Source: Candidatus Iainarchaeum sp. (GTDB lineage: Archaea > Iainarchaeota > Iainarchaeia > JAGGVJ01). Taken from it: a stretch of 18,950 bases of DNA. Of this stretch, positions 1-12,141 are shown piece after piece. Location: NCBI GenBank assembly GCA_021158055.1, contig JAGGVJ010000043.1, positions 1 to 18,950 on the forward strand, in the 5' to 3' direction. A program made the translations under genes and the position numbers. The notes beneath the pieces are model-generated. The model ran no database searches, was not told the origin of the DNA, and worked only from the letters and a program-made list of their open reading frames with translations. Positions within the stretch are counted from its first letter, which is position 1. Each line of letters starts with the position of its first letter.

Positions 1-523
1 ATGCTGATGCTTGTACTGTTCCCTGCTTACTGCCCAATAAATAAGTTGAGGTCCCTGAAGCAACACTGATATTGCAAGCGTCGCCATCAGAAATAGTTGC
101 GCTTGTGTCAATGACTATGAAGTATTCAATCCCGGAAGCAGATGCTGGAATTGAACGGTTAACAGTTACGCTCGTAGATGAACCGAGGTTAACGTTTGAG
201 TTTGTGCCAACCAATGTATCAGTAGAACTGTCAAAACCATTGTCATCAGTGCTGTCCCTGTAAATATATACGCCGTCAAAGTCAGAAGATGTTACAGTGC
301 CTGCTTGTCGAGTTACTGTAAATACTACGCTATTCAACGTCTCACTAGCGTTTTGGTCCAACCCAAAACCGACCATGGCAACTTTTGCACTGTCCGCTAT
401 AATCGCAGTATTTCCACTGAGCATCTCTGTTGCAGCAGTTGTTTCTGTAACTGTCGCTAAAGCAAAGTTCATTCCAAGCATCACTGCAAGGACAACAAAT
501 ACTGAAAATATTTTTGACTTCAT
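1..523 (-). CDS. Secreted/surface protein, 5' part (runs off window start)
   Basis: Not in the ORF track, translated by hand from ATG at 523: MKSKIFSVFVVLAVMLGMNFALA-TVTETTAATEMLSGNTAIIADSAKVAMVGFGLDQNASETLNSVVFTV...; open to position 1. Sec-type signal peptide ending ALA, S/T/D/N-rich beta-like sequence, several N-x-S/T sequons, GGAG SD just upstream. Confidence 0.85.
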   Translation of the reverse strand, partial: MKSKIFSVFVVLAVMLGMNFALATVTETTAATEMLSGNTAIIADSAKVAMVGFGLDQNASETLNSVVFTVTRQAGTVTSSDFDGVYIYRDSTDDNGFDSSTDTLVGTNSNVNLGSSTSVTVNRSIPASASGIEYFIVIDTSATISDGDACNISVASGTSTYLLGSKQGTVQASA

Positions 524-664
524 TTAATCAACTCCAACTTATTTACTTATTTTTTCCCTGTGTTTTATTTTATAAACTTTATTTTCATCGGTTTGTTCTT
601 GTTTTTTTGATTTTCTTTCATTTGTTAATTTTTTTAAATTTGTTAATATTTTAACTTAATTTTG

Positions 665-763
665 ATTATTTTGCTCACCACAATTTTACCTTGAATCAAA
701 GGCAAAAAATGAGAGATATCACTATACTTACATAACATTAAAAAAGAAACTCATATTTAAACA
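665..763. repeat. ~99-bp direct repeat, copy 1 (uninterrupted; empty-site equivalent)
   Basis: 665-731 matches 1556-1622 with 3 mismatches in 67 bp, and 732-763 matches 2893-2924 with 3 mismatches in 32 bp. Contains an imperfect hairpin (~685-709) and a minus-strand TTTAAATA at 754-761. Confidence 0.95.
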
Positions 764-1167
764 CTATCCTAAAATATGCCTTGCAGAACTCCAGTTGGAT
801 TGCCGGACTGCTTGTTAAAGTTGTTGTTTTGTCTGTCCATCCCATGTTAAGGGCCGATGCTAAGCGGCAATTTGTTTTGCCGGATGCCTTGTTTGAAAAA
901 AATAAGCGGATAAAAAAAGACGCCGGAATCATGGAAAAGATTACCATGGGGAATAGTGGATCCTGAAGGAGACTTGAGACATATATCTTTATGTCGGATA
1001 TGATTTTAGGGATTTCAGGATAAAGAAATTCCTGCGCTGAATTTCCCATTATCCGCCTGCATACCTTATATGAATCCGCATGACTGCAATACCCCACCCG
1101 GCTTTGAATTTATGCTTCAATTCTTGCTTTTGAAATTGCATTTGATGCAAGAAACTGATGAGGCCTT

Positions 1168-1284
1168 TTATTTTATCAAACCCGCGAACTTATCCCTGCT
1201 TCCTTGTTGTCTCTTCAATTCAAAACCCAGTTTTTTCAGCACCTTTGCAATTTCTCTTGCGGTCATTAAAGGCAATTTTGCCAT
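1168..1284 (-). pseudogene. hicA: Truncated HicA-family toxin (38 aa)
   Basis: Hand translation MAKLPLMTAREIAKVLKKLGFELKRQQGS-RDKFAGLIK*. Typical HicA N-terminus up to the GSH motif, where the His and the rest of the fold are replaced by unrelated sequence. Starts 2 nt after the hicB stop. Confidence 0.85.
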
Positions 1285-1286
1285 TA

Positions 1287-1502
1287 TCAAACCTCTACTT
1301 CTAACTGTTGCACAGCTAAGAATTTAGTTTTAGTCTCTTTGGTGCCTTTAACTTGCAGATATAATGATATTGCCTCTTTAGTCCTCTTAAGCAACTCATC
1401 ATATGTTTTAGCTTGTGTGTGGCAACCCGGAAGTTCAACTACTCCTGATATCAGGTAACCATCTTCCCCTTCTTCTATAATTACATTATATTTTTCTGTC
1501 AT
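1287..1502 (-). CDS. hicB: HicB-family antitoxin (short form, no C-terminal DNA-binding domain)
   Basis: YNVIIEEGEDGY...VVELPGCHTQAKTYDELLKRTKEAISLYL is the HicB/UPF0150 signature. Adjacent to the hicA fragment. Confidence 0.93.
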   Translation of the reverse strand: MTEKYNVIIEEGEDGYLISGVVELPGCHTQAKTYDELLKRTKEAISLYLQVKGTKETKTKFLAVQQLEVEV

Positions 1503-1555
1503 TTTGCATCACTAAATGTGTAAAAATACGTCGGTATTCATATAATTTGGTTTTT

Positions 1556-1622
1556 ATTATTTTGCTCGCCACAATTTTACCTTGAATCAAAGGCAAAAAA
1601 TGAGAGATATCACTATAGTTAT
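1556..1622. repeat. Direct repeat copy 2, left part (flank of IS right end; predicted guide source)
   Basis: 64/67 identical to 665-731. Similarity stops exactly at the IS right end (1623). Confidence 0.95.
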
Positions 1623-1800
1623 GTCAATTACTCCACCTTGTCGGGTGGGGCTTGTAACTAACTATATTGTTGTTACTTTTGGTTGATTGACGAACAACCT
1701 GCTGATCTCAGATATACCAAGATTAGCGATGTTTCGCGAAGCATTTAGATCAGCATGTAATTGAAAACCGCAACCACAACTATACCAACTGCCTTCTCTG
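1603..1800 (-). ncRNA. Predicted omegaRNA/reRNA (scaffold overlapping tnpB 3' end and right end; guide ~1603-1622). Its 5' boundary is approximate
   Basis: Known TnpB architecture applied to the mapped right end. Guide would be ATAACTATAGTGATATCTCT. The transcript itself is inferred. Confidence 0.65.
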
Positions 1801-2773
1801 TTTGTTTTTTTTATTGTGTTGCAATTGCTGCATTTTTGGCTTGTGTATCTTGGGTTTACTTTTACAATCTGTTTGCCTAATGCTTCTGCTTTGTAACTTA
1901 AAAACAATTCAAATTGATTGTAAGACCAATTGCCTAACATTCTGTTGAATCGCTTTCCATTACTTTTCTTTGTCATCCTGCTTAATCTTTCAAATGCAAA
2001 CACTTTAAAATCACTTTCTGCAATTGCTTTGCTTAACCTGTGATTTACATCAGTCACAAACCGTGTTTCTTTACCGCTGATTAATTTAAGTCTTTTTATA
2101 GCGGGTTTAGTGCCTTTGGACTGCAATACTCTTTTCAGGTATTGGTATTTGCCTTTGACTCTTTTCAAATCCTTTGAATTGAAAAACTGATTGTTTGAGC
2201 AGACCAAAATGTTGTTTATCCCCCTGTCTATTCCCAAAACATCTTTTGCTGTTGCCTGTTGAATTATCGGCTTTTCTTTTTCAACAACCACATTCAAAAA
2301 CAAATTATTGTTCCTGTAAATCAACATTCCTGCTTTTGGCTTCCAGTCAATGTATCTGTTCAGCTGTTTGTTTGTGCCAAAATTAAGTTTTATCCTGCCC
2401 CTGATTGTTGATATTGAAATGAATTTGTGTTCAAATGAAACCCTCAAACATCGCTTGTCATATCTCAAAGCAGACATTTGTTTTACTTTGATTTTTCTGC
2501 CTAACTTGTCTTTTTTTAATGCTTCTATTGCAACATCCCTTGATGTCTGAATCAAAGCAGATGGGAACTCAGGGTAAAGTTTTCTGATTTTTTTATAAGT
2601 TAAGTCATGCAATTCGTTTTTGTTATCTGTCTGGATGTTGAATCCAAAATCACAAATCAACTGCCTTATTTTTGAAGCGGCCTGCAAAGTGTTTTCCAAT
2701 CCCTTGCTTTTACTTAACCTTATTTGCACAGTTCTTTGCTTTTACTTAACCTTATTTGCACAGTTCTTTGCAT
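1662..2773 (-). CDS. tnpB: TnpB RNA-guided endonuclease; native ATG (2773) put out of frame by a 32-bp duplication, in-frame GTG at 2729 gives 355 aa
   Basis: RuvC-I GIDRG, RuvC-II FERL, zinc finger CSNC...CGC and RuvC-III HADLNASRNI all intact. Removing one duplicate copy restores MQRTVQIRLSKSKGLE. Confidence 0.95.
2704..2771. repeat. Perfect 32-bp tandem duplication at the tnpB 5' end
   Basis: ttgcttttacttaaccttatttgcacagttct at 2704-2735 and 2736-2767, followed by ttgc. Confidence 0.97.
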
Positions 2774-2856
2774 TTTATATCTATGGGTGGCAAACTATTT
2801 ATCTATTCATGTCTATTGTGCCATACAATACATTCAAGGTTTTATGCCCTCCCTTG

Positions 2857-2887
2857 CGGAAAGGGTCTTACGGAAAGGGTCTTACGG
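2857..2887. repeat. 14-bp tandem duplication in the IS left end
   Basis: cggaaagggtctta at 2857-2870 and 2871-2884, then cgg. Confidence 0.95.
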
Positions 2888-2892
2888 TAAGG

Positions 2893-2924
2893 ATAACATT
2901 AAAAAAGAAACCCAGAGTTAAACA
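2893..2924. repeat. Direct repeat copy 2, right part (carries TAM TTAT on minus strand at 2893-2896)
   Basis: 29/32 identical to 732-763. Confidence 0.9.
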
Positions 2925-2929
2925 ATACT

Positions 2930-3035
2930 GTGAATACCACCGATTAAAATCGTTGGATTCCCGGCTTGCAAAGGCACGGAATTTTTGCACTCCCGTGTCA
3001 AAGGTTTACCCACCGTGTCAAAGGTTTACCCACAG
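2930..3035 (-). mobile_element. Orphan IS605-type right end / omegaRNA-like remnant
   Basis: Minus strand ends GGGAATCCAACGATTTTAATCGGTGGTATTCAC, the GAA-hairpin-TCAC pattern of IS200/IS605 right ends. Preceded by a TGCAAA...TTTGCA stem. No ORF upstream. Confidence 0.55.
2993..3033. repeat. Perfect 20-bp tandem duplication
   Basis: ccgtgtcaaaggtttaccca at 2993-3012 and 3013-3032. Confidence 0.95.
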
Positions 3036-3297
3036 AACCAATTCAAAATTCTATATTACATTACACTTCTATATCATATTCATATTACACTATTCTGCAC
3101 TATTTCCACTTTCAATTTAAGATTTGAGACAGCTGATTTTACCCCATTAACCAATCCAATCAGCTGATTTTAATAACAGTTAAAATCTTATTATTTTAGA
3201 ATACACTCATTATGAAATTAATCCGAAAATCTAAAAAATATATTAAAAACACATAAAAAAGCTATTAAAAATACATCAATCGCGGTCTTGAAAAACC

Positions 3298-5781
3298 ATG
3301 AAAGGCAAACAGGAAAAATTAAAAAAACTGTATCAGGCCCAACAGCAGGGCAACTGGCTGGAAATCCAGCAGGTTCAGGAACAGTTAAAGGACTGTTTCA
3401 AGGAAAGCTATGAAGAAGGTTTTCAAAAACTGCTTCTGGAAAAACCGGGCATCAGACCCTTCTTTGACATGGACAGCGAACTGCCTCAGTCAAGGACCAT
3501 AACCCCTGAAATTGCCGATTATTACAACGTCAATCTTATTTTCAGGGAATTCATTTCAAAAGCAAAATTTTCCACAGCAGGAATCCGCGGTTTTACTGAT
3601 GTTTTGCACAGCGAAAATCCGGATAAGATATACAACGACTTATTCATGGCCATCCTGATTGAAGCAGAAGCGGAATTTTTGAAGGAAATGCACGGCCGAA
3701 TCAAGAGCCGGCTGGACAAAATCAGGGACATTGACAGGCATTGCCTGATGCTCAAAAAAGAAATAGGCGAAGAAAACACGGCAATAATAGAAAAAATATA
3801 CGGCATGGAACTCAAAGACATCCTGCACTTTTTAAAACACAACATCGTAAAGCTTGTCGGAGGGGAAGTGCGGGTGCATACCGCGAAATTCTGCGAGATG
3901 GAAGCGCGGATACTGGCAGAAAAAGGCATAACAGTCATCGCCATGAAAAGCTATTCAGACAGCACCGCAATATACATCTACTCACTGCTTACGTTTATGC
4001 TCGGGGCCTGCGGGGCAACATACTACACTTCAAGCCACAGTTCCAGTTACCTTTTCGGCAGAAAATACCTTTCACCCGACGGCGGACAGCTCCTCCCCGA
4101 AGAATATGATCCTTATATCAAAATACTGGACAGGATAATCAACAAGGAAATATACGGCCAGGGAAAATACACAATATCCATGTCTGCCGCAGACAACAGC
4201 AACATAAAGAAGAACCTGGACTACAAAGAGATGTCAAAACTATTCCTGCCTGTCCTGAACGTGACCGAAAAAGACGTGCAGGTGATAAACAATGCGACAG
4301 AAGAAGGCCAAAAAATTATCCTGAACTGCCTCAACGGCTCAACATGGAAAACCCTGAAACCGATTTTAGATGAACTGAAAATAGACACAGGCGTCTTTGA
4401 CCTGGTCTGGCAGGAAGAAAACGCTTTTTTCAACGCCGGATATTCTGTAATTTATGACCGGGACACAGGCAAGTTTATCGTCGACCATTTTGGAATCGAC
4501 ACCACCTGGAATAAATGCATCAATACAATTCCTTATTGCAGCATCTTAAAAGACCAGCCGGTCGGAAAAATGGTATTTGAATGCGACCCGGATTCCGACC
4601 GCTTTGTCTTAAAGCAGGTCATGAGTGAAGAACAAATTCCTTTATTAGAGGAATTCGGGGTTGAACACATCAAGCTGCAGGAAGGCAAGGTGCTGGGGAT
4701 GCCTTCCCCGAACAAGGTCTTTCTGGCCCTCGACATAATAGACAAGGAAAAACTGGAAGCGCAAGGCCTATGGGAAAAATACATCTCCCTGTATTTCATC
4801 ACATACGTCTCCACAAGAGCATGGAGCGAATTCGCCGACTCAGTTCCGCACCTGGTCCGCGTCATGGAAATGGTCGGGTTCAAGAACTTAACGGCAATGC
4901 AACGGGTCTTTGAAAACTGGTGGTTTGACTCAGACAAAGAAAAGCTTGTTTTCAAAGACCAGCTGGGCAGGGAAATTGCCCTGGACCGCGCACTGCCCGT
5001 CAGGATCCACAGCAAGGAAGAAGAAAGCGGGGGGCGCGTTGCCGGAACAGCCAAAGTATGCGTGAATATCCTTGGGCAACGCACCCTTGCCATGCCTGAA
5101 AAAAGCTCGGTTGACGCATTGGTTTCAATGCTTATTTTTGCCTCCGAACAGTATCTTGCCGGAAAAAACGACCTGGAAAACAGCGATTATATCATGATGA
5201 ACTTTTTAAAGGCAAAATTCAAAAAATACAGCCTAAAATCAAAAATTGATATGCGGCTTGATATCCTGCACGGGTCGCAGGGGATAATCGCAATGCTTCC
5301 TTACAAGGAACAGCAGAAAGCGCTTAAAGAAGCACAGGCAAAAAAAGACAACTTCAACAACTTTGCATTCTCGCTGGGAAAAGCAGTGCGTGAAAAAGAA
5401 AAAACCATTGATGAAGTCATAGAAATGCTTATCGCGGCAGCGCCGGAATACAAAGAAACATGGCGTTGCCTGGACGAAATAACCGTAACCGAAGAAGAAG
5501 TGGCGGGCGGCGAAACAAGGTTTGAGGGAACCCCCATGATCTTCAGGCCCAAAAACGGTTTAAACCCCCTGTTTACGGAACTGGATTTCAGGCCCTCCGG
5601 AACAGACCCGCTGAAAAGCAAAGTATATGTTGACGCAGAATCGCTTTCATTTGAGCAACGGAAAAAAACCGAAAAATACTTTGATAATCTGGCAGGGCGT
5701 GATCTTTATCATATACTGGCTCATTTCAAGGTAAAATCCGCTGTTCCGAAAAGTGATTCAACAGGTAAACAAAAACAATAA
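3298..5781 (+). CDS. Alpha-D-phosphohexomutase superfamily protein (PGM/PMM-like), divergent and long
   Basis: Motifs in the expected order: FSTAGIRG, TSSHS (phosphoserine loop, cf. TASHN), DPDSDR (metal loop), EESGG (sugar loop), RPSGTDP (phosphate loop). Confidence 0.85.
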   Translation: MKGKQEKLKKLYQAQQQGNWLEIQQVQEQLKDCFKESYEEGFQKLLLEKPGIRPFFDMDSELPQSRTITPEIADYYNVNLIFREFISKAKFSTAGIRGFTDVLHSENPDKIYNDLFMAILIEAEAEFLKEMHGRIKSRLDKIRDIDRHCLMLKKEIGEENTAIIEKIYGMELKDILHFLKHNIVKLVGGEVRVHTAKFCEMEARILAEKGITVIAMKSYSDSTAIYIYSLLTFMLGACGATYYTSSHSSSYLFGRKYLSPDGGQLLPEEYDPYIKILDRIINKEIYGQGKYTISMSAADNSNIKKNLDYKEMSKLFLPVLNVTEKDVQVINNATEEGQKIILNCLNGSTWKTLKPILDELKIDTGVFDLVWQEENAFFNAGYSVIYDRDTGKFIVDHFGIDTTWNKCINTIPYCSILKDQPVGKMVFECDPDSDRFVLKQVMSEEQIPLLEEFGVEHIKLQEGKVLGMPSPNKVFLALDIIDKEKLEAQGLWEKYISLYFITYVSTRAWSEFADSVPHLVRVMEMVGFKNLTAMQRVFENWWFDSDKEKLVFKDQLGREIALDRALPVRIHSKEEESGGRVAGTAKVCVNILGQRTLAMPEKSSVDALVSMLIFASEQYLAGKNDLENSDYIMMNFLKAKFKKYSLKSKIDMRLDILHGSQGIIAMLPYKEQQKALKEAQAKKDNFNNFAFSLGKAVREKEKTIDEVIEMLIAAAPEYKETWRCLDEITVTEEEVAGGETRFEGTPMIFRPKNGLNPLFTELDFRPSGTDPLKSKVYVDAESLSFEQRKKTEKYFDNLAGRDLYHILAHFKVKSAVPKSDSTGKQKQ

Positions 5782-11992: not shown

Positions 11993-12141
11993 CCATTACA
12001 ACAGTAACAAATGCATAGTTTTACACCCATTACAACAGTAACAAATGCATAGTTTTACACCCATTATAATAGTAACAAAAGTATAACTTTAGACCTATTA
12101 TAATAGTAACAAAAGTATAACTTTAGACCTATTATAATAGT
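11993..12141. repeat. 34-bp tandem repeat, 4.4 units in two variants (A-A-B-B)
   Basis: ccattacaacagtaacaaatgcatagttttacac x2 (11993-12060), c(c/t)attataatagtaacaaaagtataactttagac x2 (12061-12128), partial unit to 12141. Confidence 0.95.

Follow-up and report, generated by a model that had tools for sequence, protein, structure and literature searches.

Donor-joint "homing" by TnpB and its omegaRNA is a known activity of insertion sequences (ISs) of the IS200/IS605 family, such as ISDra2, and self-targeting CRISPR spacers are tolerated in their own genomes when the targets or the protospacer-adjacent motifs are mutated. The locus described here bears comparison with both. It lies in an 18,950-nucleotide stretch of DNA (the window), which is one entire contig (JAGGVJ010000043.1) of the assembly GCA_021158055.1 of the archaeon Candidatus Iainarchaeum sp., and consists of a 1270-bp IS1341-type (TnpB-only) element of the IS200/IS605 family, located at 1623-2892 on the minus strand within the second of two copies of an intergenic repeat. 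The DNA adjoining the right end of this element, which would serve as the guide of its omegaRNA, has a near-perfect match in the first repeat copy, 0.9 kb away. We consider it probable that this near-cognate site is an incidental product of paralogy, that is, a by-product of the duplication, and is neither an evolved escape from cleavage nor a gene switch.

The IS200/IS605 TnpB-omegaRNA elements of G. stearothermophilus (10.1101/2023.03.14.532601; this and the other papers cited below are represented by the parts of each that were available) resemble the element in the window in that the RuvC and zinc-finger motifs are intact and the RNA scaffold overlaps both the 3′-end of tnpB and the right end of the element. 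In both cases the guide corresponds to the flank of the right end, the target-adjacent motif (TAM) lies 5′ of the left end, and insertion is scarless, so that TAM and flank together re-create the target. The element in the window is unlike those systems in that no TnpA was found in the element or the genome and the start of tnpB is frameshifted; moreover, the described elements target the excised donor joint, whereas the match found here lies in the paralogous copy of the repeat and includes two TAM-proximal mismatches. TnpB7 of Sulfolobus islandicus (PMC11043419) is likewise an archaeal, IS-encoded TnpB with a T-rich 5′ TAM. The TAM of TnpB7 is TTTAA, and a second subfamily of element ends in the present genome is preceded by TTAA or TTTAA, whereas the element in the window is preceded by TTAT.

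TldR proteins, which are TnpB-derived, nuclease-dead repressors (PMC10705468), provide a further comparison, because in both cases a TnpB-type guide has a complementary, TAM-flanked site close to a promoter-like box. At the present locus the site has the TAM and matches 18 of the 20 guide positions, the complementarity being imperfect at the seed, and a box at 754-761 is a candidate promoter, although it lies at an atypical distance from the gene. TldR proteins have a deteriorated RuvC site, have lost the transposon ends and are encoded in association with non-transposon genes; here all three acidic residues are present, as are both ends with exact junctions. The intact RuvC triad and the two retained transposon ends led us to reject identification of the element as a TldR. 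In the same paper, self-targeting of a paralogous promoter is described as prevented by mutations in its TAM and seed, which, within the part available, is the closest published analogue of the idea that the first repeat copy has escaped cleavage by mutation. The likeness to self-targeting CRISPR spacers lies in the RNA guide and in a near-cognate site that is tolerated in the same genome through its mismatches; CRISPR spacers are acquired, however, whereas the match in the window follows automatically from insertion into duplicated sequence. In a limited literature search on TnpB self-targeting and on mismatches in IS605 and TnpB systems, none of the listed titles or abstract openings concerned an IS guide that matches a paralogous copy of a repeat.

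The junctions of the element could be fixed to the base because repeat copy 1 (652-766) serves as an internal empty site. Copy 1 is uninterrupted, and copy 2 is divided by the element into a left part (1543-1622), which is the flank of the right end, and a right part (2893-2927), which is the flank of the left end, as defined by a repeat search and an ungapped alignment. Copy 1 is continuous across the point of interruption, no bases are duplicated, and the element sits between TTAT and the next base. When copy 2 is read without the element, 11 of 115 positions are mismatched between the copies (copy-1 coordinates 655, 658, 659, 664, 677, 727, 731, 751, 754, 756 and 764), and the 49 positions from 678 to 726 are identical. 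The first-pass annotation of this DNA, which was made from the sequence alone, had described a repeat of about 99 bp interrupted by the element in its second copy; the interruption stands, and the length and divergence of the repeat are greater than was stated. Its count of three differences among 67 flank positions (665-731) is exact, the positions being 677, 727 and 731. The direct repeat is not due to chance, because a core of 32 nt is present twice in the window, whereas 200 shuffles gave an expectation of 0, and the 1.15-Mb assembly holds these two copies only.

No sign of a structured RNA was seen when the repeat was folded in either orientation (z-scores of 0.11 to -1.37), a search of positions 1-3400 against Rfam at E≤1 gave 0 matches, and a tblastx search of 740-1200 against the genome returned self matches only. 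The candidates that the repeat is a tRNA-derived attachment (att) site or a miniature inverted-repeat transposable element were rejected on the grounds that there is no tRNA-like or Rfam signal and that only two copies exist. As a separate observation, a 14-nt stretch of the repeat just past the guide (693-706 and 1584-1597) is 93% complementary to 2148-2161 inside tnpB, which is probably a chance resemblance.

The sole gene of the element is tnpB, of which a frame of 355 codons is open from an internal GTG (1662-2729, minus strand) and lacks the first 4 ancestral codons. Its product matches the NCBIfam model for guided TnpB (NF040570) with 176.7 bits against a cut-off of 100, and the Pfam models PF07282 and PF01385 with 77.2 and 43.8 bits, respectively, each over its cut-off; the Pfam families found are OrfB_IS605 and Cas12f1-like_TNB. 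The RuvC triad, reported as intact in the first reading of the DNA, is indeed complete, with D in GIDRG, E in AFERL and D in HADLNA, which we take to be the catalytic residues; the zinc-finger cysteines are present as CSNC...CGC (CxxC...CxC), and both sets of motifs align with the matching motifs of solved Cas12f and TnpB chains. The closest relative (locus L012) is 61% identical over 355 aa, and the only other tnpB-like frame in the genome is 28.5% identical over 221 aa. One full-length copy of the element was found in the assembly by blastn. Its left and right ends are similar to other ends in the genome and share with them subterminal hairpins at both extremities. Five features of TnpB-only IS200/IS605 elements are thus present, namely the TnpB protein, the catalytic motifs, scarless insertion at a conserved motif, terminal hairpins and a predicted omegaRNA scaffold, and the feature that is lacking is an intact tnpB reading frame. 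The Y1 transposase TnpA, which characterizes autonomous IS605/IS608-type elements, is absent from the element, and there is no space for it between the left end and tnpB; in the relatives L012 and L017 a divergent tnpA-like frame was recognized upstream by eye from its N-terminal motif. By these sequence features, the element is classified as a TnpB-only IS of the IS200/IS605 family, a kind that is already known.

The right boundary and the start of the guide were located by comparison with relatives. Searching 215 genomes of the class at E≤1e-20 identified relatives of TnpB in 18 of them, this genome included, and the nine best loci (42-61% protein identity, the window's own element included) were taken for the analysis of boundaries and scaffold. 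The right end of all nine elements reads T(T/C)GAC straight after a hairpin and is followed by unrelated flanks. RNAalifold applied to the last 130 nt of the nine elements predicted 24 pairs, 14 of which show compensatory changes; in the window this 3′-scaffold region occupies 1623-1752 on the minus strand, overlaps the 3′-end of tnpB and the right end, and ends in TTGAC at 1623. In the outer helix, GUCAAU inside the 3′-end of tnpB is paired with the terminal AUUGAC. The nine concordant termini and the covariation place the start of the guide at 1622 (minus strand) and indicate that the predicted omegaRNA scaffold is conserved, which upholds the earlier proposal that the right-end flank is the guide. 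With an assumed length of 20 nt, the guide directly follows the T(T/C)GAC terminus and extends over 1603-1622, and a run of six T residues just past it (1600-1595) could define the 3′-end of the omegaRNA. A right end 4-5 nt longer, by which the two substitutions discussed below would become an indel, was considered and rejected, because all nine elements end in T(T/C)GAC and substitutions are simpler than a 5-nt indel. Beside one of the related tnpB genes (locus L014, G073:C3), the apparent 3′-end of a tRNA gene with a GGTTCGAATCC-type arm was seen upstream by eye.

The TAM adjoining the left end is TTAT (2893-2896, minus strand). All six left ends of the 'GTAAGAC' type in the genome, the subfamily to which this element belongs, follow TTAT, in agreement with the TAM first proposed, and all six of the 'GTAAGTC' type follow TTAA; these counts set aside four further regular-expression matches that have no hairpin. 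At position -5 of the 'GTAAGAC' left ends, T is found in 5 of 6, and the element in the window has G (GTTAT).

The near-cognate target in copy 1 lies at 712-731 on the minus strand. Alignment with the guide (1622-1603) confirmed that 18 of 20 positions match, the exceptions being guide positions 1 (731) and 5 (727), and the target is adjoined by TTAT at 732-735 in the same 5-nt context, GTTAT, as at the element. Copy 1 is the only TAM-flanked site in the assembly within 2 mismatches of the guide, the next best site having 4. The 20-nt flanks of 20 right-end-like motifs found across the genome were also examined, and the flank of this element alone gave a non-self match with 2 or fewer mismatches. 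Such a near-target is therefore not characteristic of the family but derives from the local repeat.

Whether the two mismatches call for a special explanation depends on the divergence of the repeat as a whole. The TAM and target together contain 2 mismatches in 24 positions and the rest of the repeat contains 9 in 91, so that 2.3 would be expected (P(≥2)=0.72). The probability of at least two mismatches within the first five guide positions is 0.071, and that of both lying in a 12-nt seed, given two in the guide, is 0.35. Because the density of mismatches in the target is not above that in the rest of the repeat, there is no statistical need for selection, contrary to the earlier suggestion that self-cleavage had selected escape mutations in copy 1.

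The effect that the mismatches would have on the TnpB ribonucleoprotein can be judged from characterized enzymes. In Ymu1 TnpB, mismatches at nucleotides 1-4 abolish the unwinding states, and single mismatches at positions 4, 7 and 10 lower cleavage more than 100-fold (10.64898/2026.01.09.698545). Stable binding has been reported for Dra2 TnpB with TAM-distal mismatches beyond about position 8 (cited in 10.64898/2026.01.09.698545), and the off-target binding of dTnpB2 seen by chromatin immunoprecipitation sequencing is TAM-driven, with little requirement for the seed (10.1101/2023.03.14.532601). In TnpB7, mismatches at positions 1, 5 and 9 lower cleavage at a weak TAM (PMC11043419). By analogy with these enzymes, the double TAM-proximal mismatch most likely prevents initiation of the R-loop at copy 1. 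The alternative first put forward, that the complex binds copy 1 without cutting it, would be the less likely outcome, because that state has been tied to TAM-distal mismatches and the geometry at copy 1 is the opposite.

Action of the element on copy 1 at present is in any case doubtful, because the start of tnpB is frameshifted, no TnpA was found and the left end has an extra unit. The 5′-end of tnpB contains a tandem duplication of 32 nt (2704-2771), detected as a 36-nt exact self-match with a period of 32 and by Tandem Repeats Finder (TRF) as 2.3 copies, which breaks the frame that begins at the ancestral ATG (2773-2771). Owing to this shift, the frame from 2773 meets a stop after 17 codons; the tnpB of the relative L012 begins in the same way as the ancestral ATG at 2773, and the junction of the duplication is bridged by Logan unitigs in two sequencing runs, X1 and X2. 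The left end contains three 14-nt units (2853-2894), and related left ends on contigs C14, C33 and C25 have two. A search for the Y1 transposase TnpA (PF01797) found none in this genome, which is 94.9% complete, and was positive in 6 of 14 control reference genomes. The element is non-autonomous and shows signs of decay.

Other traces of the same element family and of the same kind of mutation were noted elsewhere in the genome. Miniature elements of 41-45 nt, composed of the start of a left end, one hairpin and a right-end terminus, occur at C25:4249, C40:1262, C45:28606, C14:14337, C22:10811, C31:1409 and C45:22629, and form two subfamilies in which TTAT pairs with ...TAATTGAC and TTAA with ...TAGTTCAC. 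A derivative of about 445 bp with a truncated tnpB is located at C33:33691-34136, and no TnpA able to move it or the miniature elements was found in the genome. Three short tandem duplications lie in or next to the element within 330 bp, with units of 32 nt (2704-2771), 14 nt (2853-2894) and 20 nt (2993-3033). Genome-wide, TRF detected 286 arrays with a period of 10-45 and fewer than 3.6 copies, or about 0.25 per kb, of which 11 are on the contig of the window; this organism seems often to mutate by short tandem duplication.

The history of the locus would then most simply be as follows. A TnpB-only IS would have inserted 3′ of (G)TTAT into one of two copies of an intergenic repeat of about 115 nt that had already diverged and that flank a decaying hicB/hicA cassette in the archaeal chromosome. 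Because the guide of TnpB is the DNA beside the right end, copy 1 automatically carries a TAM and a near-match. The mismatches at guide positions 1 and 5 would belong to the ordinary divergence of 10% between the two copies. Whatever their origin, they probably prevent the unwinding and cutting of copy 1, and the arrangement may be tolerated for this reason. The order of events is an inference, as is the absence of cleavage, of binding and of any regulatory role at copy 1; the anatomy of the element, its junctions, the TAM, the conservation of the scaffold and the mismatch statistics are established.

Several points weigh against this account. Given two mismatches in the guide, the probability that both fall in the first five positions is 0.053, and it falls to 0.013 when judged against the conserved 67-nt flank and to 0.008 against an 86-nt core, both of these windows having been picked post hoc, after the data had been seen. 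The clustering of mismatches beside the junction is real, and selection is possible. The frame of 355 codons with all catalytic motifs stays open from the internal GTG, so TnpB might still be made. The TnpB7 of Sulfolobus tolerates single mismatches at its cognate TAM, and cleavage is uncompromised by a mismatch at position 5 (PMC11043419); by this analogy one mismatch might fail to protect copy 1, and two seed mismatches are what a scenario of escape would predict. Finally, no outgroup or IS-free relative with the repeat was found in the genomes and contigs scanned. When positions 1-3300 were compared by blastn with 41 genomes from the class, among them this one, the sole member of its family and genus in the set, no match covered 678-766 or 1569-1622, and the matches obtained were confined to an AT-rich, low-complexity stretch at about 578-677 and to hicBA. 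Exact-pattern scans for the repeat gave 0 matches in metagenome contigs and 0 in genome contigs, from which the records of the window's own genome may have been omitted. Because no relative bearing the repeat was found, the order of events cannot be polarized.

The explanation that fares best among the others is that copy 1 matched the guide closely enough to be cut when the element arrived and that the survivors had gained TAM-proximal substitutions in copy 1 (or in copy 2). It would account for the placing of both differences at guide positions 1 and 5, next to 49 positions (678-726) without any difference, with the nominal P-values of 0.008-0.053 given above according to the window chosen; the tolerance of single mismatches by an archaeal TnpB would make two substitutions necessary, and seed and TAM mutations that preclude self-targeting have a precedent at the phage fliCP promoter next to TldR (PMC10705468). 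However, the target has no excess of mismatches over the repeat as a whole, the low P-values come from windows chosen with the data in view, and no relative was available by which the changes could be polarized. In addition, a cut in copy 1 could be repaired from copy 2, which would copy the element into copy 1 or delete hicBA, and neither outcome is present. The TAM context also speaks against it, since this element has GTTAT and 5 of 6 elements of the subfamily have TTTAT; if position -5 matters, targeting would have been weak from the start. Escape selection is therefore rather unlikely. The broader proposition, that the TAM-proximal differences are a natural record of self-targeting of copy 1 by TnpB or mark a weakened site that is still bound and tunes a promoter, is held with similarly little confidence.

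It may also be asked whether the substitutions arose on the side of copy 2, either at insertion or in later events at the junction, so that copy 1 would be ancestral and the guide derived. Both differences are within 5 nt of the junction, three short tandem duplications around the element point to a high local turnover of sequence, and copy 2 is polymorphic between sequencing runs at 2915. Nevertheless, insertion and excision of IS200/IS605 elements have been described as scarless (10.1101/2023.03.14.532601), there is no known mechanism that substitutes flanking bases, and polarization would again need an outgroup. Such a derivation of the guide is decidedly unlikely, and ordinary divergence between the two copies is preferred as the source of the mismatches.

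A role of copy 1 in transcription had been suggested from its position near a promoter-like box. The TATA-like box TTTAAATA inside copy 1 (754-761, minus strand, read from the sequence) is degenerate in copy 2, and the target had been placed 20-40 nt downstream of it; the measured distance is 23-42 nt past the last base of the box, on the strand that leads to a gene whose 5′ part occupies 2-523 (minus strand). Control of this gene from TTTAAATA is not favored by the distances, because 238 nt separate the box from the start codon at 523, whereas a second, proximal TATA-like box, TTTATAAA (569-576, minus strand), is 53 nt upstream of that codon. Across 638 long open reading frames in the genome, TTTAWAWW boxes are most frequent 30-49 nt ahead of the ATG (42 boxes) and number about 2-11 per 10-nt bin farther upstream. 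Oligo-T runs are archaeal termination signals, and a T6 run (704-709, minus strand), which is the same run that follows the guide at 1595-1600, lies about 22 nt past the first target base and putative start site. Regulation, in which a TnpB-omegaRNA complex would bind copy 1 uncut and block transcription from TTTAAATA in the manner of TldR or CRISPR interference, could draw on the location of TAM and target just past a consensus-like TATA box, on the TATA-binding protein (TBP) gene found in this archaeal genome and on the existence of TnpB-derived repressors (PMC10705468), but it is highly improbable in view of the intact RuvC triad and retained transposon ends, which are unlike TldR, the abolition of unwinding by TAM-proximal mismatches when uncut binding is reported for TAM-distal ones, the generic, TAM-driven binding of dTnpB2, by which copy 1 would not be singled out, the atypical position of the box, the early T6 run and the frameshifted tnpB.

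If the mismatches had been selected, TnpB guides would be costly when an IS enters repeated DNA and hosts would escape by seed mutations, which would bear on the choice and retention of sites by these elements and on the off-target rules of TnpB genome editors. Likewise, a self-targeting record or a tuned promoter, if real, would be an example within a genome of how an off-target conflict between a guide-carrying transposon and its host is resolved. With incidental paralogy as the preferred explanation, the locus offers a clean, well-delimited case of an archaeal IS1341-type element for which an empty-site control is provided internally. It serves mainly as a worked example of how the TAM, the guide and the omegaRNA boundary are defined from sequence, and it supplies a ready natural pair of matched and mismatched targets for a reconstituted TnpB.

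The arrangement is not an assembly artefact, because it is also seen in an independently assembled contig. Three sequencing runs, none of them listed as RNA, belong to one study, and Logan contigs of two of them, X1 and X2 (both labelled hydrothermal vent metagenome), cover the locus; Logan contigs of the run X3 contain nothing that covers it. A contig of X2, the source sample of which may be that of the assembly, spans 716-2733 with zero differences and has copy 1, hicBA, copy 2 and the element in the same order. No Logan contig of X1 or X2 joins 1622 to 2893 as an empty site would; these contigs drop rare variants, so rare excision is not addressed by them. Near the left end, the X2 contig differs from the window at 2846, 2870 and 2915, and the T at 2915 is the copy-1 state, which may be due to gene conversion between copies 1 and 2 or to a polymorphism of older origin.

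The genome is archaeal, as indicated by the TBP gene, the control search for which matched only the four archaeal reference genomes, and its assembly comprises 45 contigs. The contig of the window is chromosomal, because it carries a seryl-tRNA synthetase gene. Its G+C content is 37.9%, against 41-45% for most contigs of the bin, and six other short contigs have 35-38%; this may reflect a genomic island or heterogeneity of binning. Between the repeat copies, a hicB-like antitoxin gene (1287-1502, minus strand) matches Pfam HicB_lk_antitox with 27.3 bits against a cut-off of 27, and the adjacent hicA-like toxin gene (1168-1290, minus strand) is truncated to 40 aa and covers only profile positions 1-25 of the 58 of HicA_toxin. 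The element is placed between hicB and the degenerate TATA-like box of copy 2.

The gene at 2-523 is represented by an open reading frame that runs off the window, and its product has no Pfam or NCBIfam match; from its hydrophobic, signal-peptide-like N-terminus, it is a putative secreted or surface protein. The X1 and X2 contigs share the same 8 differences from the window within 75-425 and have none in 697-2733, which suggests that strain-level variation is concentrated in this putative secreted-protein gene. Farther along the contig, two adjoining arrays of 34-nt tandem repeats, with 2.6 copies each, lie at 11993-12141, in the interval that separates the gene for seryl-tRNA synthetase from one for an AAA-ATPase.

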